A stretch of DNA of 64,000 nt, taken from IMG/VR virus record IMGVR_UViG_3300037149_000100; one strand, 5' to 3'. Below, piece after piece: positions 1 to 21,588 of the stretch (positions within the stretch are counted from its first letter, which is position 1; each line of letters opens with the position of its first letter). The position numbers and the translations under genes were made by a program. The notes beneath the pieces were generated by a model, which was given only the letters and a program-made list of their open reading frames with translations, searched no databases and was not told the origin of the DNA. This DNA comes from a virus.

Positions 1-507
1 ATTTACATGATGGGGGATGCGATTAAATATCTTCGAAAGATGTATCCGGAGCAGGAGACTGCCATGGGGCTCACAACCGAAGACCCAGACGCTCCGAGTA
101 TTCTCAATAAAATCCAGCATGGAGTAGTTGACCAGGAAGAGGAAGAACTCGTTCAGAATGTTGAAATGCGTAAACTCCGTCATGCCTTTGACGAATGGTG
201 TACGCGAAAGCTTCGTCCCGCCACGGCAAAACAAATAGTTCAGTTTTTTGACTTGATTATCATCTTTGATGGTGGCCAGGGAGAAATGCTGGATGAGTTT
301 GCCTCTCGTTCTGGGGTAAGTCGTGCGAGAGCCAATCAACTTCTTTACCACGAACTACCCCGATACCTACGTCAATTTTCTAGTTCTCCGGAAGGGAAAG
401 GTTTCAGTCTTGCCAAGCGTATCCGCACCAAGATTGAGAATGAAAGGCATGAAGCCGAACTACCTGCGAGAGAGCCAGAACCAGAGCTTGCCCAATCAAC
501 CCCTTAA
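1..507 (+). CDS. 5'-truncated protein with sigma-70 region-4-like HTH (sigma-like transcription factor)
   Basis: Frame is open from position 1; EFASRSGVSRARANQL resembles region 4.2 E-x-G-x2-(L)GVSRERVRQ. Confidence 0.45.
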   Translation: MYMMGDAIKYLRKMYPEQETAMGLTTEDPDAPSILNKIQHGVVDQEEEELVQNVEMRKLRHAFDEWCTRKLRPATAKQIVQFFDLIIIFDGGQGEMLDEFASRSGVSRARANQLLYHELPRYLRQFSSSPEGKGFSLAKRIRTKIENERHEAELPAREPEPELAQSTP

Positions 508-525
508 TCCTTTGGAGGAAACCTC

Positions 526-996
526 ATGCGTGAGAAAAGAGAACTAGAAACCCCAGTAGTGGCTGCCAAACAGCCTGTTAAGTTTGCCCGATTCAAACAG
601 ATTGCCAATGAAGATCCGGCAGCCCTGTCGGATGCGCTTTGCGAATTGTCAGAAGCATTTTCCAGTATGGCTGAGGCTTCGGAAGCATTGATTGAAAACC
701 TTGATCTGACCCCAGCACCGAAGGAAGCATCCATTCGTGAAAAGGTCGCGGCTCGTAAGAAGTTCGCCACCATGCTGAAGAAGCTGGCCAACGAAGCTCC
801 TGAAAAGGTCGAAGAGGCCCTGAATGAGATTTATAATGCCGTTGATGAGGTGGCCCTTGCGATTGAGAACCTTTCTAGCAATTTGGGCTTTACCCTGGGT
901 GAAGTTTCGGAAGAGCCGGTTGGAGATGAAGAAGTGGTGGAAGTTACCGAGGAAGTCCCAGAGGCTGAGCCCTCTGAGGAAGAATTCCCAGCCTAA
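526..996 (+). CDS. acidic helical protein, candidate head scaffold/internal protein
   Basis: GGAGG RBS; duplicated helical block, Glu-rich tail, K-x-A motifs (KFA, KVAA, KLA). Confidence 0.4.
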   Translation: MREKRELETPVVAAKQPVKFARFKQIANEDPAALSDALCELSEAFSSMAEASEALIENLDLTPAPKEASIREKVAARKKFATMLKKLANEAPEKVEEALNEIYNAVDEVALAIENLSSNLGFTLGEVSEEPVGDEEVVEVTEEVPEAEPSEEEFPA

Positions 997-1094: not shown

Positions 1095-1784
1095 TTGGCA
1101 CCGAAGAGAAAGTATGAAAAGCAACCCTACGAGGTCGGAGTTTACGGGATACTAAATACCATTACAAACAAGTGGTACATTGGGTCTTCTATTGAGTTGT
1201 CAAGGAGATTCGGGCATCACCTGAGAGAACTGAGGAATGGGAAGCACCATTCTCTTAAGCTTCAACGTTCATTTGACAAATATGGCGAAGGGGCGTTTCA
1301 GTTCAAGATACTCTTGGTATGTGAAGCCAAAGATGTGGAAATGTTCGAAAACAGAGCCATCATAGCTTATGATTCTTACAAGAATGGGTATAATGTGGCT
1401 GCGGAAGCTAAGGGTGGGTTTATGCGCGGAAGAAAATGGCCAGAGGCTACGAAAGCCGCAAGGGTTGTTAGCATGTGTGGGCGACCCATGTCAGATAGTA
1501 ATAAAGCAAGTCAATCCGTGAGAAAGCTGGCAGAGTGGGCAGATCCTGCTACACATGAGGCCAGATCAATTAGTATGCGAAAGCCCAAGAGTCCGGAGGG
1601 TCGTGAAGCCATAATTCAGGGTTTAAAGAAACGTTATGAGTCTCCGGAAGCTCACAAAGCAACAGCCGAGGCGACAAGAAAAACGTGGGCTGAAAGACGC
1701 GAAAAATACGGTTCAACTGGTAGAAAACCAAAAAATAAAAACAGTCTAACTACTTCTGAGGAGGTGACTTACGGCGGAAAATAG
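1095..1784 (+). CDS. free-standing GIY-YIG homing endonuclease with NUMOD3-like basic tail
   Basis: GVYGILNTITNKWYIGSS, R..H, E, GYN catalytic signature; basic repeats at C-terminus. Confidence 0.9.
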   Translation: MAPKRKYEKQPYEVGVYGILNTITNKWYIGSSIELSRRFGHHLRELRNGKHHSLKLQRSFDKYGEGAFQFKILLVCEAKDVEMFENRAIIAYDSYKNGYNVAAEAKGGFMRGRKWPEATKAARVVSMCGRPMSDSNKASQSVRKLAEWADPATHEARSISMRKPKSPEGREAIIQGLKKRYESPEAHKATAEATRKTWAERREKYGSTGRKPKNKNSLTTSEEVTYGGK

Positions 1785-2520: not shown

Positions 2521-2574
2521 TGCCACGGCTAAAAAAGACTATCCATCTCATTAATGAAATGGAGTCGCACACCC

Positions 2575-2868
2575 ATGCAAGCGGATATTCACCAACAAGT
2601 TTACTATCTATCTGGCAAGACTCAAAAACTGGCGTCTTCGAAACAGGCGTCAGATAAGGGATTGAAGAAGGCTGCGTCGATGGGCCTTATTAGGGTTGCG
2701 GGGAACTTTTTTGAGTGCCCCAGCAGCAAGGATTTATGGAAAGTGGACGGGGATAAAGTGAAACGTGTTTCTTCAGTAGAAGTGGACTTCAACGAAAAAC
2801 TTTCCGCAGCCGATCCAGAATATCCCAATAGGTATCTGAAAGATATCCTGGCCCAACTCGACTTTTAA
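2575..2868 (+). CDS. hypothetical virion-associated protein
   Basis: GGAG RBS favours ATG 2575; KLAS/KQAS/KAAS motifs. Confidence 0.45.
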   Translation: MQADIHQQVYYLSGKTQKLASSKQASDKGLKKAASMGLIRVAGNFFECPSSKDLWKVDGDKVKRVSSVEVDFNEKLSAADPEYPNRYLKDILAQLDF

Positions 2869-2882
2869 AAAGGTAGACCCTA

Positions 2883-4262
2883 ATGGACGACAACAAGCAA
2901 TTCTCACTTATCGATTCTTTTCTTCAGGATCTTACCCCTGATTATGGAAATATCGGCCTGAAAAAGCCGCAGAAGATGGATGAGCAGTTCACCGATGCCT
3001 CTTCTCAGGTGGATAACGCCTTCCTCGATCAAATTGGCGGTCGCTCTGAGCACACTGTCGTTCCGAGTGGACGAACGGCTGCTGGTGGTCGTGAGACTAA
3101 ACCCATCAGGGATGCAACAACAGGTGACTCTGCTTTGGCTGATGCGTTTAGAACGCTTGAAGCCGTTGACCAGCATAACGAACTTGACGTAATTACTGAT
3201 GCAGAGATAGCAAATCGAGTCAATTATCTACTCAGTCTTGGGCATAGTCCCAGTCGTGTTGCCAGCTACGCCAAGAAATTGGCAGTTGAGGTGCAGCGTG
3301 ATGCGCTCAAAGTTCCAGCCGCTCAGTCCAATACGGATGAGACGGAAGCGATAGCCAAAACCATGGGCACCAATGCGGATTACTGGGAACCAAACAAGTT
3401 TGAGATGCTGGGCTCCGCCTACATCGAGCCTAATTTCTTCAGGAATAGCTGCAAAGCCTCCTTCGATAAAATCAAGAAAGAGGGACATCTTCATACCCTA
3501 TCAGTAAAAAAGATCGCCGCCTGCCCTGGATGCCAGTATAACAATTGTGGTAACTGTGGCCTTTACAGCCGTCCCATCGTCGCTTCGGCCAGTGAGTTGA
3601 AAACTGTTGTCAAAACAGCTTTAGACAAGAAAGGCATCAAAGTTACTTCCACGTTGAAGGCTGCGTTGGCCCAATTACGTAGTGGGGGTGAGAAGGAACC
3701 CCAGCAGCTTCCCTACAGCCGCAACACTGAAAAGTATGTGGTTAGGACGGCTGGAGACAAGCAAGCCACGGTCCATAAGGAAGCCAGTGTCGAAGAGATT
3801 GGCACTATGGTTGGCTCTGGCATCCCCCTCAAGGATGTGTACAAGACCGCCACTGCTCAGTATGGCAAGACTTCAGCGATGACTGCGATCAAGCGTTACA
3901 TTCTGGGTCTTAAACAGAGCGGGGCAAAAATCATTTTGGCTGCGATTGACTGCACTCTGCTGAAGAACAAGCTGGCAACTGGCAACGCCATTGTTGGGGA
4001 GAAAAAGTGTGCCTCATGCTCGTATCGTAACGGAATGCATTGCGGTTTGACGGGTGGGACGCTTCTTACTTTCCCTGGAATGGACCATGTGTCTTCCAAG
4101 CATATTGTTCATGCAGGCGTGAAAGACGGGCATGAAGTTCTATTCGAGTTTGACCTCCTGGATACCGGAGAGGACAGCCCCATCGAATACAAGGAAGTGC
4201 CCGAGCAGGCTGACACTGATGTGATACTGACCCGCTCGTCAGAGATTAACATCGAGGATTAA
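2883..4262 (+). CDS. protein with two C-x2-C-x6-C modules, candidate head protein
   Basis: CPGCQYNNCGNCGL and CASCSYRNGMHCGL; many [KR]-x-A motifs. Confidence 0.5.
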   Translation: MDDNKQFSLIDSFLQDLTPDYGNIGLKKPQKMDEQFTDASSQVDNAFLDQIGGRSEHTVVPSGRTAAGGRETKPIRDATTGDSALADAFRTLEAVDQHNELDVITDAEIANRVNYLLSLGHSPSRVASYAKKLAVEVQRDALKVPAAQSNTDETEAIAKTMGTNADYWEPNKFEMLGSAYIEPNFFRNSCKASFDKIKKEGHLHTLSVKKIAACPGCQYNNCGNCGLYSRPIVASASELKTVVKTALDKKGIKVTSTLKAALAQLRSGGEKEPQQLPYSRNTEKYVVRTAGDKQATVHKEASVEEIGTMVGSGIPLKDVYKTATAQYGKTSAMTAIKRYILGLKQSGAKIILAAIDCTLLKNKLATGNAIVGEKKCASCSYRNGMHCGLTGGTLLTFPGMDHVSSKHIVHAGVKDGHEVLFEFDLLDTGEDSPIEYKEVPEQADTDVILTRSSEINIED

Positions 4263-4765: not shown

Positions 4766-7700
4766 ATGGCACGAGTAGAAAAATCATTCACCACGTTAGG
4801 CTTGGAGGGCATCCTTCAGGGTGTTGTTGCTTGCCTTGTTGATGCCGAGAAGAAAGCTAAATCCTCTCGTGAAATCCAGTCTATTGATGTGAGTCGCCGT
4901 GGTCTCAGACAAGACCTTTATGTTGGTAAGCTGATGGTCATTCCAGCCTCCGTGATGGATGAGATGGATAAGATTCCCGACCCCCTGCTGAAGGGAGCGG
5001 TGATTAGCCTCTTTGATGGCGAGGACGCCTCTTATTTGGAAATGCACCGACTCAGCACTAGCGAGTTTGATAATTTGACTCCAAAGGACATTAGCGAGTA
5101 TAAGGATAAGGTGTTCAAGGACTCTGAGGGTAAGTTAGGTTGTATCGTCATCTTCCAGCCAGCCTGGGGCAATGCTCGTGACCTCCATGCTTTCCACTTC
5201 ACTACAGATGTCCCCAAACTGACCCTCCTGGTTCGTCACCTCGTGTTCTCAGCTTATTACAACCCCAGCCTTTCTGCTTTGTTTGACACCCTCTCTGAAG
5301 AAGCTATCAAGTTGGATGCGGTAAACATCACTCACGATCATATTGGACCCGCATATGAGTTCCAGTCCAAGGAGAATGTTTACCCACAGTTGGACAAGAT
5401 GGCTAAGATTGCATCTATCATGAAGATGAGTCCTGATGAGTTCACCACAGCCTATCTGGAAGCCGCCGTTTGGACCGGAACGGATGAAACGGGTGAGTCC
5501 CTGGATCGAGAAGGAAAATTCTCTATCGAGGACTTCTCTACTGAAGCCCTCCGAAAAGCCGAAGAAGATTGCACCGCTTTCATGGAAATGGCTGGCCCTG
5601 AATTGGACGCTCTGAGTTCCGATCAAGCTGGACACCTGTTCTGGTTGAACCGTAACGGTCACGGAACCGGATTCTGGGATGAGGATAAACTTTCTCCTGA
5701 AGCCCAGCAGTCTTTGGCCAAGCTAGCTCATTCATTCGGTGAGTGTGATATGTATGTCAGCGAGGACGGGGAATTGGAACTCTCTGGGGGTCAGATTCCC
5801 GCACCCACTCCCCAGCCTGGGAGTGGTCACATTCTTCCCAAGGAATCAAAGTGGATTCGTCTTAACGCCTCAGCCCTTCCTCTCATCCTCGCTGACAAAA
5901 TCACACCTGAAGAAACAAGTGTATTTGACGAACTGACCATACAGTTAAAAAAAAAGACCGCTAATCGCAAAATCGCTGAAGGGACAGATCCTTTTGACGG
6001 TTACTGCCCCATCTGTGGAAGTCCCGGATGCCAAGGTGAATGCTCTTCATCAACAGGCGGCAAAGAAAATTTTGAGGAGCGAACCGCCACTGGGGATGCC
6101 GGTTCGGTAAGGATCCCCACCTCCCCTAACACTGGAACCCGAGCCGAAGAAGACTTTGAACAACCAGGGTCCCAGCCGACTGAAGAGGAGCCGGTCCATT
6201 TTGGATCACTTCGAATGGCTGCTTTCTTAGAGAAAATAGCGAGTGGTGAAGTCCTCAATGGCTACACGCAGATGCGTGAGACTTTCAAGTCTGATTTTGC
6301 CTCTAAGGACGAAGCTACCAAGGAAACTGACCATGAGGGTACGATAGAGAAGCAGGCCGCTCTCCCCCCTCCCCCTCCAGCAATCATCGCTCCCGCACCC
6401 GCTCAGGCTGCTCCGGTAACGGGGATTGGGGCCAAGCCTCACTCAGCCGTTCTGAATGCCATTCAAAAAGCTCTCCAAGGAGCGGGGGTGGGTAAGGGCT
6501 CCTCTGAAGAATCCTCTCAGGCTACCGAACTTCTTCTAGCCAGAATGATGGCTAATAAGAGCATCACAAGTAACATCAAGAAGACCAACGAAGGGCAATT
6601 TTCCATCACTCTTACCCCTGAAGTGGTAAACCAACTCGTCAATGTTTATAAATTAACTCCTGGTCAGAACTCCACCGCTCAAAAAGATAAGCCAGAGTTA
6701 CAAACTGAAGTGAGTGATGTGACGATAGATAGCAGACCTCAGTGGTATAAGGACAAGATGAACGTCCAATCCGCCGATCAGGAGATTAGCTCCGCCGCCA
6801 ATCAACTTGTGGAGCAGCACCATGGTGAGTATCTCTCCAAAGAGAACCTCACACGCCTCCTCTCTCATATGACCAATAATGTCAAGGCAGTGTTTTCTTT
6901 TCTGACACAACAAGGGCTGCTCCAAGCATACGGTAAGGATAGCTTCAAAGTTATGACTCGAACCGAGCAGGAAGATAACTCGGATAGTGGGGTCTTCTGC
7001 CCCAACTGCGCTGGTCCTGGGGTTCCGATGGGGAATCTTGGTGGGCGTGAACATTTCCGTTGCCGGAACTGCGGGTCTGATTTTAGCCAAAAAATGGCTA
7101 GTGATACCAAAGTCGCCTCTACCCATAAGATGGCACTCACCTATATGCACCCTGGTGAGGCATTGGAACAATTCTATCCCGAGATTTTGAAAGATACCTC
7201 TGACTACCCAATTGGCTACCCGGAGCGTAACTCTACTCCCCCTCCCCTTCCTCTGGAGCTTCAAAACGAGCCTGGGGGTGAATCTCAAGTCACTGATAAA
7301 GACTACAGTGATGGTGGGATGAAGCACTCACTGGGAGAACCGGGGCTGGTTCCCTCGCAGGATAGCAATTCCGTTCCACTCAAGCCTAATGAGCGTTCAA
7401 TTCGTGGCCCCTTTTTCTCCGATCAGTTCTATCGGATTCACACCGACATTGAGCCAGCCTTGCTGACTATGAAGTCCTCCCTGGAGAACAAGACTGCTGC
7501 CTCACCTTCCAAAGCAGCCATCATTGCTGAGTTCCTCCGCAAGCTGTCGGGTGAGATTGCTTCTTCCTTGCTAGCCGCTTTCGTAGTGACTGACCGCCCC
7601 CTTTTCACCAACAGCCCCTCTTATTCGGTCATCAACCTTTCGAATGAGTCTACGATATGCCCTATGAACCCCCTGCTCACCAGTGGTGGGATGAGCCCAT

Positions 7701-7903
7701 ACGTGGCTCAGTTCAAATCTCTACTCTCCTCAATCAATAGCGGGGAGTTGACCGAAGCGATCAACAATGCTTGGGCTCAGGGTGGGGTGTGGCATGATGG
7801 TCCGGATGGCCGCTTCCTCTACGAAATTTTTGTTAGAATTGAAAAAGTTGATATCGAAACGCTGGATATCACGTATAAGTATATTACGGGTACCAAGGAG
7901 TAG
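4766..7903 (+). CDS. large multidomain (polyvalent-like) putative virion protein
   Basis: 1045 aa; discrete domains (GHLFWLNRNGHGTGFWD domain, two Zn ribbons) separated by low-complexity linkers carrying K-x-A clusters. Confidence 0.55.
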   Translation: MARVEKSFTTLGLEGILQGVVACLVDAEKKAKSSREIQSIDVSRRGLRQDLYVGKLMVIPASVMDEMDKIPDPLLKGAVISLFDGEDASYLEMHRLSTSEFDNLTPKDISEYKDKVFKDSEGKLGCIVIFQPAWGNARDLHAFHFTTDVPKLTLLVRHLVFSAYYNPSLSALFDTLSEEAIKLDAVNITHDHIGPAYEFQSKENVYPQLDKMAKIASIMKMSPDEFTTAYLEAAVWTGTDETGESLDREGKFSIEDFSTEALRKAEEDCTAFMEMAGPELDALSSDQAGHLFWLNRNGHGTGFWDEDKLSPEAQQSLAKLAHSFGECDMYVSEDGELELSGGQIPAPTPQPGSGHILPKESKWIRLNASALPLILADKITPEETSVFDELTIQLKKKTANRKIAEGTDPFDGYCPICGSPGCQGECSSSTGGKENFEERTATGDAGSVRIPTSPNTGTRAEEDFEQPGSQPTEEEPVHFGSLRMAAFLEKIASGEVLNGYTQMRETFKSDFASKDEATKETDHEGTIEKQAALPPPPPAIIAPAPAQAAPVTGIGAKPHSAVLNAIQKALQGAGVGKGSSEESSQATELLLARMMANKSITSNIKKTNEGQFSITLTPEVVNQLVNVYKLTPGQNSTAQKDKPELQTEVSDVTIDSRPQWYKDKMNVQSADQEISSAANQLVEQHHGEYLSKENLTRLLSHMTNNVKAVFSFLTQQGLLQAYGKDSFKVMTRTEQEDNSDSGVFCPNCAGPGVPMGNLGGREHFRCRNCGSDFSQKMASDTKVASTHKMALTYMHPGEALEQFYPEILKDTSDYPIGYPERNSTPPPLPLELQNEPGGESQVTDKDYSDGGMKHSLGEPGLVPSQDSNSVPLKPNERSIRGPFFSDQFYRIHTDIEPALLTMKSSLENKTAASPSKAAIIAEFLRKLSGEIASSLLAAFVVTDRPLFTNSPSYSVINLSNESTICPMNPLLTSGGMSPYVAQFKSLLSSINSGELTEAINNAWAQGGVWHDGPDGRFLYEIFVRIEKVDIETLDITYKYITGTKE

Positions 7904-7905
7904 GG

Positions 7906-8391
7906 ATGTCTGACACCAATATCGTCATCGCTCAGTTGAAGAATTTGATGAGTGAGGTTTTGGAGCTTCGTGACCAGAAACCCGAGGCCCAGACCAAAGC
8001 CCTCGAATTCCTTAAGAACGTAATCAACGCTCTTCATCTGGGACGCAAGACAGGGGCAAAGAGGGCCGCAGTCGGACCCACGCGCTTCGATACTCCCGCC
8101 ACCGAGTACTTGTTTGGTCTGAAGCCAGACCTCGAATCTGGAGAGCCTAATCATGGTAACGGATGGTGGGGGCTGTATCTTGGTATGCTCTCTGAGGGGA
8201 ACCAGGAAATGACATCACTTCCCCAGCCTGATATGAACTTGCTAAAACAGAATCATGGAGCCATCCTTCACGAATCTGCTGATGACGACTCTGACTCCGT
8301 TACGGGTCAGTTCTTTCCCCTTGAAGAAGACGCTGTGGACCAATGGGAAGAGTCTATCAGTGGCGATGAACCAGAACTTTCCAACATTTAA
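7906..8391 (+). CDS. hypothetical protein
   Basis: Coupled to upstream gene; acidic C-terminal domain. Confidence 0.6.
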   Translation: MSDTNIVIAQLKNLMSEVLELRDQKPEAQTKALEFLKNVINALHLGRKTGAKRAAVGPTRFDTPATEYLFGLKPDLESGEPNHGNGWWGLYLGMLSEGNQEMTSLPQPDMNLLKQNHGAILHESADDDSDSVTGQFFPLEEDAVDQWEESISGDEPELSNI

Positions 8392-8403: not shown

Positions 8404-9669
8404 ATGAAACTCTCACTCACCGCAAGACTTTTCCTGGCCGATGTCTCTGGGTCCACCAAGGCCACTATCATGCAGATGTACAAAGCCAAACCAACCTTCC
8501 CCAAGGATGAGGCCCAGATCGATGCCGTCCTTGCGGCTCTGGACTCCACGCTACCTCCAGGGCTTCCTTCAAATCGTCAGAAAGTATATCTGAAATATTT
8601 GGCCAAACAGCTATGGGGCATCACACCTCCAGGATTTGTTCTGAAAATGGCTCCTGATGGACAGATTGATTTTGAGGACAAGCCTCGTGTCAGTTCTACA
8701 CTGGCTAATTTTGAGCAGGCCATCAAGGACCAGACGCTAACTGGAGAAGCAACAAACGTCGAAGCCTATGCTACCCTGTCAGATATGCAGGAAGCTGCGG
8801 CCACAGAGAAAGGCCAGAAAGTAAAGGCCAAGTTCACTATTGATAATCTCCCCGAAGAGGCTGAATCCTCCAAGGGTGGACAGCCGGGTAACCCCCGTCA
8901 GGCTGTGGCTGAGGGTAGCAAGGTTATCGCTCAGGATGGAAGTTGGAAGTGCTATAAGATCAAAGCCGGGGACCCCAAGGGCAAGGAAGCCGGAAGCTGG
9001 CTAGGAATGAATGGCTGGTGGGGCGTGAGTTGGTGTGTGGGCCGCGATTATAGTAGTGAAGCTTGGAAGAGCCGTCCTTACATGAACGAAGGAGACTTCT
9101 ACTTCCTGGTTCGTGATGGAATCAGCCGCTACGCTATTGCTACGGATGGTTCTAAGGCTGATGTCTACAATCCTGCGGATGATGTGATTTGGCAGACCGG
9201 TGGAGCCAGTGGTGGGAATTTCCCATCCCTAGAAGCCACAGCCAAGCAGTTGGGAGCGGAGTTTAATGCTAGCTCTGTTTCTAGTCTTCCCCAAGAAGCA
9301 TTAGGTATCCTCCGTGCCGCGACCGCTGCGGACCCCTATTTGGCTGGTCTGATTCCCCCTGATCAGTTGAATGAGACCGATACGGCCTCGTTGGACAAGA
9401 TTATTGCCTCCTGCCCTGCTGAAGGATTGGTCGAAGACTTGAACTCCAATTCAGGTTACCGTGGTAAGGGTGTGACGGCGGGTATCGTCAATCGCTGCGT
9501 GGCCAAGAACAACAAGAACGGTGCGAAAGACTTCAGTGCCGTGTGGGACCAGTTTGGCGAACAGGCTATGATCATGTATATCGAAGCCCTTGCCACTAAC
9601 GGCTATAAAGAGCTACCCCCCTCATTGGAGGCTTACTTTGTCAAGGAAGCGGAGAACTTCGAGTTCTAA
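8404..9669 (+). CDS. hypothetical protein with G-x-x-W-C (PcfJ-like) module
   Basis: GAGG RBS; GVSWCVGRDY...YMNEGDFYF motif, recalled from large-phage proteins. Confidence 0.4.
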   Translation: MKLSLTARLFLADVSGSTKATIMQMYKAKPTFPKDEAQIDAVLAALDSTLPPGLPSNRQKVYLKYLAKQLWGITPPGFVLKMAPDGQIDFEDKPRVSSTLANFEQAIKDQTLTGEATNVEAYATLSDMQEAAATEKGQKVKAKFTIDNLPEEAESSKGGQPGNPRQAVAEGSKVIAQDGSWKCYKIKAGDPKGKEAGSWLGMNGWWGVSWCVGRDYSSEAWKSRPYMNEGDFYFLVRDGISRYAIATDGSKADVYNPADDVIWQTGGASGGNFPSLEATAKQLGAEFNASSVSSLPQEALGILRAATAADPYLAGLIPPDQLNETDTASLDKIIASCPAEGLVEDLNSNSGYRGKGVTAGIVNRCVAKNNKNGAKDFSAVWDQFGEQAMIMYIEALATNGYKELPPSLEAYFVKEAENFEF

Positions 9670-9692: not shown

Positions 9693-11546
9693 ATGAGTAG
9701 TAGGCAGCGATTTACTCAAAAAGCAAGAGAATCCGTGTTGGGTGGGTTGGTTGACACCCATATTACAGACAGTACCACTATGCTCAATGCATTGGAGTTC
9801 ATTGAATCTCCAAGTGGACTAAATATAACCTTATACCCGGTTCAGCGTGTTCTGATCAAGTTGATTTTTGGCATTCCGATGGATTGGAATGAGCATGAAG
9901 TCCCCGTTTACGATCAATTCTGTGAAAAACTCCTGTTTACCTTTACAGAACGTGAATACATCCGTTATGTATTTGAAAAGGGGCGCATCAATATCCCCAC
10001 TTGGGAAGATGCCAGCCCACTTGGTTATAATGAAATTGATATGATTGTTGGTCGTCGTGGTGGAAAGTCTGTGGTGGTCGCCGCAGTCGCTGCTTATAAG
10101 CTCTACCTCTTGTTGAGCCACCGAGATCCCCAGGAATATTATGGTCTGGTTCCCGGTTCCCCTATAGACCTGACGATGATGGCACAGGACTCTAAGGGGT
10201 CTTCTCGTTTATATGACCAGCTAAAAGAGGACATCAACCGAGCCCCCTTCTTCGCACCATATATCAAATCCATGACTGGTGAGGAGATGACGTTCATCTC
10301 AGAGGCTGACCGTGGCAAGCGAGAACTCACCCCATCCATTAAAGCAGCCGCTTATCCGTGTACAACCAATGCAGTGCGGGGACCCAGCAGCTATTTCCTG
10401 GCCCTGGACGAGTTTGCCCACTACAGGCAGCAGATTGGATCCACTTCGGACGAGATGTACTCCGCCGCCGCCCCAGCTACGATGCAGTTCAAAGGTGGGG
10501 GAACGAGAGAGGGTTTGAGGGAAAGTATGATTTTTATCATAACTTCCCCAGTTAACAAAATTGGTAAATACTATACCTTGTTCAGGGATGCGTTAGAAGA
10601 AGGCCCCAGCAGCCCTGTGTTGGCCTTCCAATGCAGCACCGCAGAAATGAACCCCCGTTCAGATACCCCATTCCTCAAAAAGGAATACAAGGACAACCCC
10701 GAAAAGTTCAAGGCTGAGTATGGTGGGGAGTTCCTGGATGCTTCGGAAACCTACGTCAAGGGCTTGACGATTGATGAGTGCGTTGATCAAGATAGGGGTA
10801 ACGTCACCACCCTCCTCTCTTCCATGCTCGGGCACAATTACTTCTGGGGACTTGATTTAGGAATGAAGCATGATGCCACAGCCCTGGCAGTCTGTCACTG
10901 GGAAGGGGGGCAGAACAGAGCATGGCTCGTATTCGACTATATAGATAGACTAATGGTTGGGGAGGACAAATACAAGGATGTGGCTGAACTTCCGCTGGAT
11001 GATGTGCTTGACTGGCTAAAGAACGCGCACTCCATGCTCCCGTGCTTCCAGGGGGTAACTGACCAGTATGGTGGGTCTCTCTTGGTCCAACTTCTCACAG
11101 CGAATCAGGTTACGGGGATTGAATTACTGCATTTGACTTCAGGTGTGAACTCGCAGATGTATCTGACACTAAAAACTCTTATGGAGAATCGTCAGGTAAA
11201 GTTTCCCAATGTTTCAAAGTTCGTATTGGAAATGAAGTTCTTAGAGGCATCCTTTATTAACAAATATCAGGTGGTTGTAAAAGCCCCAACGGAAAAGGAC
11301 GCTCATGATGACATGGCCGATGCGGCAGCTCTTGCGGCATACAAAGCGCAGCTATGGGCTCTGGGTGATGGAAAACGAGTCATGTGGGATATCATGCAGG
11401 GGGTGCCACAGAACATGGTTCCTGGAACTATCAGGGGGGGATGGGATATGAACGGCTCCCTGGCCAGCTTAAAATCTTATGAACGACAGTTGCAACATCA
11501 ATTAAATCCTTATGGTGCAGTTAGAAACCCCTATCAAAGGCATTAA
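9693..11546 (+). CDS. terL: terminase large subunit
   Basis: Q-motif YPVQ, Walker A GRRGGKS, Walker B LALDEFAH, coupling motif ITSP, RNase H-like GLDLG..HDATA and HDDMAD. Confidence 0.92.
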   Translation: MSSRQRFTQKARESVLGGLVDTHITDSTTMLNALEFIESPSGLNITLYPVQRVLIKLIFGIPMDWNEHEVPVYDQFCEKLLFTFTEREYIRYVFEKGRINIPTWEDASPLGYNEIDMIVGRRGGKSVVVAAVAAYKLYLLLSHRDPQEYYGLVPGSPIDLTMMAQDSKGSSRLYDQLKEDINRAPFFAPYIKSMTGEEMTFISEADRGKRELTPSIKAAAYPCTTNAVRGPSSYFLALDEFAHYRQQIGSTSDEMYSAAAPATMQFKGGGTREGLRESMIFIITSPVNKIGKYYTLFRDALEEGPSSPVLAFQCSTAEMNPRSDTPFLKKEYKDNPEKFKAEYGGEFLDASETYVKGLTIDECVDQDRGNVTTLLSSMLGHNYFWGLDLGMKHDATALAVCHWEGGQNRAWLVFDYIDRLMVGEDKYKDVAELPLDDVLDWLKNAHSMLPCFQGVTDQYGGSLLVQLLTANQVTGIELLHLTSGVNSQMYLTLKTLMENRQVKFPNVSKFVLEMKFLEASFINKYQVVVKAPTEKDAHDDMADAAALAAYKAQLWALGDGKRVMWDIMQGVPQNMVPGTIRGGWDMNGSLASLKSYERQLQHQLNPYGAVRNPYQRH

Positions 11547-19272: not shown

Positions 19273-21588
19273 ATGGCAGGAAGACGCAAACAGACGAGAA
19301 TCAATAAGGTAGCGAGTAAGGATATTCCCCAGTTCTCTGTAGGGAAATATTCCAGTTTTAACATAAACGGTACGATCGAAGATCCCGTTAGGAACGGCTC
19401 TGCCACTGATGCTAAAGTCAGAATGGCCAATAAGATGCGGAAGAGTGCAGACCTATGGGCTGGGGAGAACGGTCCTGCCAACATTTCTGACTCTGAAAAC
19501 ATTGGCTATTATAGCTATGAGTTCCCAGTAGATGCTCTGGAACTCCCACAGTCTAGAGCCCAGGAACTCCGGTTCTACCGTCTCGCGTATGATCGTGACC
19601 CTATTGTTGGGCGAGGTATTGACCTTCATACTGAAATCCCAATGAACAAAATAAATCTGGATCGTCCTAAGTGCTCATCTGAGGCGTTTGGCGATTATAT
19701 TTACGACTTTTACCAGGGTTTGGTAACAAATTCACGGTTATTTGAGACCCTACTTCACGCCAGTCGGGAGTACTGGAATATTGGTGAGGCATTCCTATTT
19801 GTAGAGGATGATCCCGATATTAAGCCCTCCGAAGCTGCTGCGGAATACGTCCAGGCCATGGATGAGCAGGACGACCAGAAGATGGCCGAACAAGGCCAGT
19901 CTCGTTCCTATTTTGAGACGGACAATACCTCTTGGGGTTCCGAAGCGGTCAGCATGACCACAAAGCACTCCTCAGCTAAACTGGCCGCACAGGTGGGCTT
20001 TGACCCACTTGCCGATACGGACAAGGCAATTCGCAAGAGGGTTGCAGCCCTTAACGAAATCATGAGTGACCTGAAATCTCTGGAGAAAACTGCCAGTGCT
20101 AAACAAGCAGCCCCTCCTGAAGATGCGGGACCGGCCATCGGAGAGTCTACGGATGCCCCCACGGGTGGCACGGATCTACCAGCCCCCGGTGCCGAACCGG
20201 GTGCCGATGATGCGGGTTTAGGCGCTGATGGTGATGCCGGAGGTGGCGGAATCATGCCCTCTGACTCCATGGGCGGAGGTGGTGGAGGTATGGGGATGAG
20301 CATGGGAGGTGGCGGAGGTATGGGTATGGATGATACGGGCACCGGTATGGAGACCCCTGTCCCCCCCAAGGATCTTGAAACCCGTCGAATGGAAGAAGTG
20401 ATTAAGCTGTTGAGGAGAAAGAAAGAACTCCTGAAAGAGTTAGAAGATCTTCACGATATCCGCAAGAACGACTTCGAACTCTTCTCCCATCTATCCAATA
20501 AAGATTATATGGGTTTTGACCGTATTCAGCTTCTTCCCCCTGAAAATGTTGAAATCAAGAAGTCTTCGACGTTTGGCTCTGAACCCACTATCTTCTACAA
20601 GCCCCCAGAAGATGCTAAAGCATCGTACATCGAGAACCCTGATACCCCTGATGAGGTTAAAGACAGCCTTTCAGCCGATGGGGTCATTCCACTGAATGAC
20701 AATCCATTCAAGGGCTCTTATGCGATTCATTTCGCTCGTAAGAAAGCCCCATTCGAGGATCATGGTCGCTCGATTCTTCAGCGTTGTATGAGGAGCATCA
20801 TCTACCGTGAAAAGCTCCGTCAGGTGCAGACAACTATTGCTTCCCGCAACATGACCCCCAAGACTTTGGTGGTTGCTCCGGGTGTGGCAAATGGTGAGTT
20901 GATGGCCCTCAGAGGTCATATTGATGAAGCCAAATCAGATCCAGATTACACCGTGGTCGTCAACTATGAATGCACCTGGAATGAGATTGGCTCTGAGGGT
21001 CGCCTTCTCACTCTGGATGGTGAGTGGAGCCATACCGGCAATGACTTAGCCATCGGTCTCGGCTTCAGTCCTGATATCCTTAATGGCGAGGGACTCTACA
21101 GTAACACCCGTACTCAGTTGGACATCCTCAGCACTACTTACCTCCAGTTCCGTGCGGTTGTTGCCTACATCGTGCAAGAACTGATATTCAAGCCCATCGC
21201 AATGAAGAAGGGCTTTTACGAAATCGACCGATATGGCCGACCCCGCTGGCTCTACCCCGAAGTGAAGTTTGGCCGCATGGCTCTTCGCAATGCTGGAGAG
21301 ACCTATCAGATGTTGTTCGATCTTTACCAGAAGGGCTCTGTACCGGTTAGTGTTCTGCTTGAACTCCTTGATGTGGACCCAGAAGTCTGCCGCAAGAACC
21401 TAGAAGCTGATCTCTTCACCGTTAACGACTCCAAGTTCAATGCTTTCCTGGAAAATCTCTACAGTAATGTTGCTAGTTCTGATTCATTTGCTACGACTGA
21501 TATTGCGGATAAGTTTAAACGTGCGCTTGGTTTGAAAGAAAAGGATATTGATGAATCTGAGATCGAAGGTTCCGGCGAGGGCATCTAA
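19273..21588 (+). CDS. portal protein with a large low-complexity insertion
   Basis: YDRDPIVGRGIDLH, EYWNIGEAF, LLPPENVEI, IHFAR, GRSILQRC portal-type blocks. Confidence 0.75.
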   Translation: MAGRRKQTRINKVASKDIPQFSVGKYSSFNINGTIEDPVRNGSATDAKVRMANKMRKSADLWAGENGPANISDSENIGYYSYEFPVDALELPQSRAQELRFYRLAYDRDPIVGRGIDLHTEIPMNKINLDRPKCSSEAFGDYIYDFYQGLVTNSRLFETLLHASREYWNIGEAFLFVEDDPDIKPSEAAAEYVQAMDEQDDQKMAEQGQSRSYFETDNTSWGSEAVSMTTKHSSAKLAAQVGFDPLADTDKAIRKRVAALNEIMSDLKSLEKTASAKQAAPPEDAGPAIGESTDAPTGGTDLPAPGAEPGADDAGLGADGDAGGGGIMPSDSMGGGGGGMGMSMGGGGGMGMDDTGTGMETPVPPKDLETRRMEEVIKLLRRKKELLKELEDLHDIRKNDFELFSHLSNKDYMGFDRIQLLPPENVEIKKSSTFGSEPTIFYKPPEDAKASYIENPDTPDEVKDSLSADGVIPLNDNPFKGSYAIHFARKKAPFEDHGRSILQRCMRSIIYREKLRQVQTTIASRNMTPKTLVVAPGVANGELMALRGHIDEAKSDPDYTVVVNYECTWNEIGSEGRLLTLDGEWSHTGNDLAIGLGFSPDILNGEGLYSNTRTQLDILSTTYLQFRAVVAYIVQELIFKPIAMKKGFYEIDRYGRPRWLYPEVKFGRMALRNAGETYQMLFDLYQKGSVPVSVLLELLDVDPEVCRKNLEADLFTVNDSKFNAFLENLYSNVASSDSFATTDIADKFKRALGLKEKDIDESEIEGSGEGI

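Follow-up and report, generated by a model that had tools for sequence, protein, structure and literature searches.

The subject of this report is a gene at positions 4766-7903 of a viral DNA stretch of 64,000 nucleotides (IMG/VR virus record IMGVR_UViG_3300037149_000100), here called the window. The window corresponds to the minus strand of a 106-kb IMG/VR contig for which CheckV gives a completeness of 37%, and the phage genome is therefore estimated at about 290 kb, which makes it a jumbo phage. The product of the gene, P0001, has a single full-length relative among cultured phages, gp350 of the Tunturiibacter phage Tunturi_5, a 309-kb soil myophage; a nucleotide search returned no DNA-level match to cultured phages. 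P0001 consists of two conserved end modules with small domains between them, and its linkers carry short tags of the form Lys-x-Ala (K-x-A), often followed by Ser or Ala (K-x-A-[SA]). The interpretation that is somewhat favoured here is that P0001 is a modular, protease-processed and capsid-loaded cargo precursor of a Tunturi_5-like lineage of jumbo myophages. The features of the gene are as follows, with positions in amino acids (aa) of P0001 in brackets and model confidence given as the predicted local distance difference test (pLDDT).

4766 to 7903, plus strand: the whole gene for P0001 (1045 aa), open throughout; homologue of Tunturi_5 gp350.
4766 to 5404, plus strand: N module (aa 1-213), a confident alpha/beta fold almost without K-x-A-[SA].
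5396 to 5416, plus strand: first border tag, KMAKIAS (aa 211-217), the family-wide YPxL..K-x-A-S right after the N module.
5435 to 5812, plus strand: phrog_1915 domain (aa 224-349), with a near-invariant GH..FWL.RN.HG.GFWD.
5819 to 5977, plus strand: helical segment of the backbone (aa 352-404, WIRLNAS...), which directly follows the first border tag in insert-free relatives.
6002 to 6043, plus strand: four-Cys knuckle CPICGSPGCQGEC (aa 413-426), common to the relative P0003 only and of low model confidence.
6092 to 6124, plus strand: conserved linear motif GDAGSVRIPTS (aa 443-453) in a disordered acidic and Ser/Thr linker.
6233 to 6244, plus strand: tag KIAS (aa 490-493).
6299 to 6442, plus strand: Pro/Ala-rich disordered linker (aa 512-559) holding the tag KQAA (aa 529-532, nucleotides 6350-6361).
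6740 to 6991, plus strand: long helix and winged-helix-like domain (aa 659-742, pLDDT 87-97).
6998 to 7087, plus strand: zinc ribbon CPNC-x17-CRNC (aa 745-774), with beta strands at pLDDT of about 90.
7091 to 7138, plus strand: border tag cluster KMAS-DT-KVAS-TH-KMAL (aa 776-791), whose last K-x-A is family-wide and stands at the start of the C module.
7124 to 7900, plus strand: C module (aa 787-1045), with a confident helix and beta-sheet fold in its core (about aa 920-1045).
7490 to 7501, plus strand: near-invariant K-T-A-A (aa 909-912) in a disordered stretch right before the C core.

The family to which P0001 belongs has been delimited in two ways. A word-based search gave 13 relatives of 799-1199 aa. 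An exhaustive profile search gave 7189 matches in total, 142 representatives at E<=1e-30, and about 125 metagenomic relatives that carry the N module (aa 1-213), the C module (aa 787-1045) or both. An earlier inspection of the letters of the window, made without database searches and called here the sequence-only reading, had proposed a cargo polyprotein and had set the collinearity of orthologues as a test beforehand. In pairwise and multiple alignments the termini are kept and the middle between the N and C regions is not collinear, as that reading had expected. Sub-profiles showed that proteins with both modules range from about 500 to 1521 aa, with the N module always N-terminal and the C module always ending on the last residue. 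The minimal forms (P0032, P0043 and P0082, about 500 aa) consist of the N module, some 50 aa and the C module. Complete proteins with the N module only also exist and reach 1683 aa (P0064, verified); an apparent class with the C module only was given no weight, since a contig end truncates at least one of its members. Alignment of 50 members with both ends yields a common backbone: the N module, the motif YPxL..K-x-A-S, a helical segment of about 45 aa, a variable region with the motif GLRxxPDYGE, a K-x-A-(A/L)-F/Y.. and the C module, inside which a near-invariant K-x-A directly precedes the folded core.

Structure modelling agrees with this layout. The N core and the C core were confidently folded by AlphaFold when modelled on the minimal relative P0032. 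Three stretches of P0001 (aa 427-479, 512-559 and 630-656) are modelled as disordered and are rich in Pro, acidic residues and Ser/Thr, which bears out the Pro/acidic linkers of the sequence-only reading. The N and C modules are thus shown to form a chassis, with small autonomous modules inserted and shuffled in the disordered region between them. At least five distinct modules were found in P0001, and they are shuffled among relatives; the presence and position of three of them, the phrog_1915 domain, the winged helix and the zinc ribbon (CPxC...CRxC), vary from one relative to another.

The best defined insert is the phrog_1915 domain. The sequence-only reading had marked a compact domain at 5432-5787, and this domain proved real: aa 224-335 of P0001 match positions 10-136 of the 141 in the phrog_1915 profile (E 3.3e-16), and aa 224-349 are modelled at pLDDT >90. 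In P0001 the domain sits exactly between the KIAS tag (aa 214-217) and the helical segment that begins at aa 352. It is found at aa 468, 573 or 605 in P0014, P0044 and P0149, and it is duplicated in P0150. As a free gene of 107-150 aa it also occurs in more than 100 cultured phages, among small accessory genes. In the ESM Atlas it matched unnamed viral clusters only.

The second insert combines a long helix with a winged-helix-like domain and the zinc ribbon in one unit (aa 659-779, pLDDT 87-97). For aa ~670-742, fold searches with the model of the middle returned mostly winged-helix domains (cullin WHB, SSO6202, MCM8 WH, Fur and Rpa2), with scores that are sub-threshold (Foldseek E 0.06 or worse; VIA Z 5-7.2, below the noise guide). 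The winged-helix module recurs at other positions in seven distant family members. The zinc ribbon at 6998-7087 had been picked out by the sequence-only reading and is confirmed as a conserved module that is mobile within the family, with copies in P0003, P0004, P0046, P0066 and P0149. A second ribbon claimed at 6002-6043 does contain four Cys but amounts to a mere knuckle, found in one close homologue and modelled with low confidence. The same reading had held that the first and last of these domains also exist as stand-alone phage genes. That is true of phrog_1915, but a free-standing zinc ribbon is unconfirmed: it has marginal PHROG matches (E ~2e-3) and no match in a word-limited search among proteins of 28-90 aa.

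The K-x-A clusters noted from the sequence are more frequent than chance would allow. P0001 holds 14 K-x-A where 5.2 are expected (p 0.006) and six K-x-A-[SA] where 0.9 are expected (p 0.002). Across 125 family representatives, 587 K-x-A-[SA] were counted against 151 expected, a 3.9-fold excess. Control motifs with permuted or substituted positions stayed at 0.9-1.5 times expectation in five of six cases; the sixth, K-x-A followed by a residue other than Ser or Ala, was also at 1.5 times. The sites are concentrated at module borders, with densities per 100 aa of 2.3 at the border after the N module, 2.6 at the border before the C module and 0.04 within the N module. The residue ahead of the Lys is preferably Ser and the x is preferably Thr or Gln, and the K and A are near-invariant inside stretches modelled as disordered. 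A K-x-A stands 3-14 aa upstream of every true phrog_1915 insert, whatever the position of the insert.

The tags are also restricted by genomic location. Downstream of P0001 lies the large terminase subunit, a position that assigns the gene to the head and packaging block. The features of this block that bear on the argument are the following.

2554 to 4262, plus strand: a pair of partner genes upstream, of 104 aa and 459 aa, which are homologous to Tunturi gp347 and gp348 and enriched in K-x-A-[SA].
9693 to 11546, plus strand: large terminase subunit, 617 aa (phrog_2, E 3e-21).
19273 to 21588, plus strand: portal protein, with four K-x-A-[SA] against 0.5 expected, one of them KVAS at aa 12-15.

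The P0001 gene is packed stop-to-start against its neighbours, and the terminase gene begins 1.8 kb downstream. In Tunturi_5, gp345-gp349 lie upstream of gp350, the terminase gp1 comes next and the polymerase and portal genes lie beyond. P0001 and the gp350 family share the N and C modules and the syntenic position upstream of the large terminase, and genes of the family occupy this conserved block by the terminase, near the major capsid gene in L005, a 305-kb relative. Of 79 K-x-A-[SA] sites in Tunturi_5, counted in 145 ORFs (open reading frames) that make up 64% of the genome, 38 fall in five virion-block proteins: gp328, gp332, gp345, gp348 and gp350. Of these, gp328 is a 'DNA ejection' protein, and gp332 is scaffold-like and adjoins the protease and capsid genes. 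The sheath, tail fibres, terminator, terminase, polymerase and methylase of Tunturi_5 have 0-1 sites each and show no excess. In Tunturi_5 and L005 alike, K-x-A-A is present twice, at aa 19 and aa 26, in the major capsid protein (phrog_2522, E 2e-43; gp334 in Tunturi_5); the protease (phrog_18299, E 3.8e-13) carries KVAS 22 residues from its C-terminal end, and the portals carry sites near their N-termini. The restriction to the block is repeated in L005 and in another relative, L011, with tag enrichment almost only in head-module proteins. On the present contig it extends to the ORFs at 526-996, 2554-2868 and 2883-4262, P0001 and the portal. This distribution fits the pattern that would be expected of a recognition motif for the prohead protease.

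A neighbouring gene connects the block to virion-delivered proteins. In L011 the homologue of gp345 contains an ART-PolyVal domain (PF18760, E 3.8e-14) at aa 449-581, flanked by KTAA (aa 397) and KAAAS (aa 589); three further tags lie within the first 50 residues of the protein. The presence of ART-PolyVal characterises polyvalent, virion-delivered proteins (PMC5512222). With a tagged domain of this kind in a neighbour, the whole block gives the impression of encoding cargo proteins that are punctuated by tags and loaded into the capsid, and P0001 looks like the most modular of them. The gp345 family, annotated as 'virion structural protein', is itself modular (L011:3635-5692, L001:3576-5579, window 1-996). 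Its N-terminal 350 aa are common to Tunturi_5 and L011; in their C-terminal parts the two proteins diverge, with ART-PolyVal in L011 and another segment in Tunturi_5. The counterpart in the present phage appears as two ORFs (301 aa, running off the window start and ending at 507; 156 aa, 526-996) without the middle part.

Taken as a processed precursor, P0001 would be matured as follows. The K-x-A-(S/A) tags in the linkers are probably recognised by the phage prohead protease during head maturation. Release by the head protease had been part of the sequence-only reading, and it gains indirect support from tags that are conserved in disordered linkers and enriched in head-module proteins of three genomes; the cutting itself we infer. 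In herpesviruses, assemblin cuts its R-site and M-site at (V/L/I)-x-A|S, and phage prohead proteases share the assemblin fold. The likeness lies in an Ala at P1 and a Ser at P1' at the sites of a capsid maturation protease, with Lys at P3 here versus an aliphatic residue there, and from this likeness the cut would probably fall after the Ala. Cutting at the tags would split the precursor into five larger pieces, plus two short peptides from the linkers (39 and 6 aa). The first piece would be the N module (about 216 aa), the second (about 276 aa) would hold the phrog_1915 domain and the third (about 247 aa) the winged helix and zinc ribbon; the fourth would comprise 127 aa (aa 785-911) from the first part of the C module and the fifth the C core (about 134 aa). 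What follows is more tentative: the pieces may remain inside the head and pass into the host together with the DNA, where the small domains may act early, the winged helix and zinc ribbon probably by binding nucleic acid. The host-takeover or anti-defence role that the sequence-only reading had proposed for such domains is conjecture.

A broader and equally speculative proposal is that the N and C modules serve as a capsid-loading chassis and K-x-A-(S/A) as a general release code, which would make this a natural modular injection system for almost any small domain. The phrog_1915 domain might then be an early-acting effector, for example in anti-defence, that is carried as cargo and also encoded as a free early gene. 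If the processing model is true, Lys-x-Ala would join the 'after Glu' rule known from T4 and phiKZ-type phages as a new cleavage rule, one by which the head proteome of this poorly known lineage of jumbo phages could be predicted from sequence alone. Packaged multi-domain cargo would have a different build, with inserts between two end modules that are freed by the capsid protease and not by a built-in peptidase. There would also be a first functional handle on phrog_1915, a domain with thousands of phage homologues (most of the 7189 profile matches in total are probably to it). The system is directly testable since Tunturi_5 and its host are in culture.

Several observations weigh against the cargo interpretation. 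P0001 contains no effector-type Pfam domain, and only sporadic ones appear in 123 relatives; searches of Pfam with the whole protein and five segments gave only sub-threshold zinc-ribbon or Lar-like matches. No function can be read from structure because the folds of N, C and phrog_1915 matched nothing known. For the combined N and C model, nothing rose above noise in Foldseek against PDB, Foldseek against BFVD or the wide VIA search (best Z 6.0, to YkuJ), and since these models are multi-domain the searches do not show the absence of a known fold. Sequence-profile searches of PDB gave nothing meaningful, the ESM Atlas gave nothing for the N module, and in the fold search with the model of the middle the winged-helix domain filled the lists, which left phrog_1915 effectively untested there. 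The shuffle test behind the tag excess controls whole-protein composition and not local composition, and where in the tag the cut falls is guesswork. Among non-head proteins of Tunturi_5, gp3 is mildly enriched in the motif. So are gp36, gp128 and gp321, which have 3-4 K-x-A-[SA] sites each; gp36 (a nucleotidyltransferase) and gp128 (a 1100-aa hypothetical protein) lie outside the virion block and gp321 (a 1362-aa MutT/NUDIX protein) at its upstream edge, and these three may be further packaged proteins or noise. The phage's own protease and major capsid genes were not found on the contig, where no ORF matches the 262-297 kb region of Tunturi; they lie beyond the contig end. Pfam Peptidase_S77 (PF03420) and Gp23 had no match in the contig or in Tunturi_5, but the control genomes were silent too; Pfam gave nothing for the head proteins of Tunturi_5, and its gp331 protease matches only phrog_18299 and nothing in Pfam. 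No published K-x-A prohead code was found in the literature, and no proteomic, N-terminal or cleavage data are on record for any family member.

The main rival is a role in assembly only. P0001 would then be a prohead core, scaffold-like or internal structural protein that is dismantled or remodelled by cuts at K-x-A, with a middle that is a fast-evolving spacer, small domains that aid assembly or DNA condensation, and no host effector. This is rather unlikely. The same tag marks the scaffold-like gp332, the capsid, the portal and the protease, the middle is largely disordered in the model, and effector-type Pfam domains are almost absent from the 123 relatives. The winged helix and zinc ribbon could just bind packaged DNA, and most propeptides of phage SPN3US exit the head (PMC10052503). 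An assembly role is hard to reconcile, however, with the phrog_1915 domain, which is common as a free accessory gene in unrelated phages that have no chassis. Close relatives swap inserts, and the sporadic Pfam matches among 123 family members include DMP19 (a DNA mimic), GNAT and the late-transcription coactivator domain Trans_coact, besides DUF7249, DUF6582 and several zinc-binding modules. The ART-PolyVal domain of the syntenic neighbour also speaks against this rival.

That P0001 is packaged at all is deduced from sequence, and this leaves some room for a protein outside the virion, namely a cytoplasmic multi-domain regulator or DNA-binding protein in a late operon for which K-x-A-(S/A) is a linker preference or another signal. 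A few non-head proteins are indeed mildly enriched in the motif, and the block holds a tag-free, non-structural gene of 244 aa with a weak, sub-threshold match to Phage_antitermQ (E 3e-4, 21 bits, cut-off 26). Such a role is improbable in view of the concentration of the motif in head-block proteins of three genomes and its presence at the N-terminus of the major capsid protein and near the C-terminal end of the protease, which are classic places for prohead-protease cuts. The gene also belongs to a conserved block that runs up to the terminase, and it is closely linked there to the adjoining genes. The GenBank label of Tunturi_5 gp350 as a DarB-like antirestriction enzyme, which came from a Phold/Foldseek match to phrog_10089, is rejected as very improbable and at odds with the sequence: neither an N6-adenine methyltransferase nor a DExH helicase domain was found, no PHROG or Pfam match to a DarB-type methyltransferase or helicase was obtained for P0001, gp350 or the 123 relatives, and a protein of 1045 aa made mostly of linkers and small domains is unlike the two-enzyme DarB of P1 (about 2255 aa).

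The cargo interpretation invites comparison with several known systems. In T4, the capsid-targeting sequence (CTS) is a leader of about 10 aa that ends in (L/I)-x-E. P0001 has no such short N-terminal leader; its first tag (K-I-A-S, aa 214) follows a folded module of 213 aa, and several domains share one polypeptide. The T4 internal proteins IPI-III and Alt are loaded into the prohead, trimmed at a short motif, injected and early-acting, all of which is only predicted for P0001; Alt has ADP-ribosyltransferase activity, and an ART domain is present in the L011 neighbour. Effectors fused to MuF or SPP1 gp7 similarly combine a conserved head-associated module with variable cargo delivered with the DNA, delivery being a prediction here. 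P0001 differs from these in having no MuF domain and in carrying its cargo internally, between two conserved modules, and not at the C-terminus.

In SPN3US and phiKZ, the prohead protease has been shown to cut head and ejection proteins at multiple sites (PMC10052503). Cleavage occurs after the Glu of (S/A/G)-x-E and extends to the portal, the major capsid protein and, by self-trimming, the C-terminus of the protease (PMC10052503). Phages phiKZ, 201phi2-1 and SPN3US (protease gp175/gp245) thus resemble the present lineage in repeating one short motif across head proteins, with cleavage seen there and the motif distribution only here. The motif differs, (S/A/G)-x-E there and K-x-A-(S/A) here, and cargo modules between two conserved end modules have not been described in those phages. 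Fold searches found no relation in sequence or fold to their head proteins.

Polyvalent proteins of phages and conjugative elements carry 2-15 domains per polypeptide, draw on a repertoire of conflict domains and are encoded near packaging genes (PMC5512222); proteolytic release of their domains has been proposed (PMC5512222). The kinship to polyvalent proteins suggested by the sequence-only reading holds in part. P0001 has several distinct and unrelated domains in variable architectures, solo versions of domains occur elsewhere, and the gene is encoded with the virion packaging genes. None of the known polyvalent repertoire was found in P0001 with Pfam, whether ARTs, nucleases, methylases, helicases, ArdC, ParB, MuF or MPTase. 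Its modules are small, non-enzymatic and mostly without an assigned role, and their release is predicted to be by the head protease at a linker code and not by a built-in peptidase. P0001 appears to work like polyvalent or internal-protein cargo, yet it stands outside those families by their defining features.

Some further features of the surrounding genes have been recorded. The protein of 459-530 aa encoded at window 2883-4262 (Tunturi gp348; L011:7928-9448) has the densest K-x-A-S tagging, with 8-10 sites, and two conserved Cys clusters (CPGC..NCGNCG and CASC..HCG); it is likely another processed head protein. Two ORFs, at 7906-8391 (161 aa) and 8404-9669 (421 aa), separate the P0001 gene from the terminase. 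They gave no family match, show no tag enrichment and are absent from Tunturi_5, where gp350 abuts gp1; L005 has ORFs of similar size (157 and 409 aa) at the same position. In Tunturi_5, a second ORF, gp90 (68759-69988), is labelled 'major head protein' by Phold only; it lies at a great distance from the main virion block and beside a 'tape measure' ORF. Within the head-gene block, window 1095-1784 codes for a free-standing GIY-YIG homing endonuclease (Pfam E 3e-6; phrog_314 E 2e-26), and GIY-YIG genes are found nearby in L005 and L011 too. The terminase of L005 (L005:14850-17855) has 1001 aa against 617 aa here, with faint LAGLIDADG matches, and probably carries an intein. In L011, two tandem genes with a BubE domain (PF20137; L011:13481-14140) lie directly downstream of the family member P0018.

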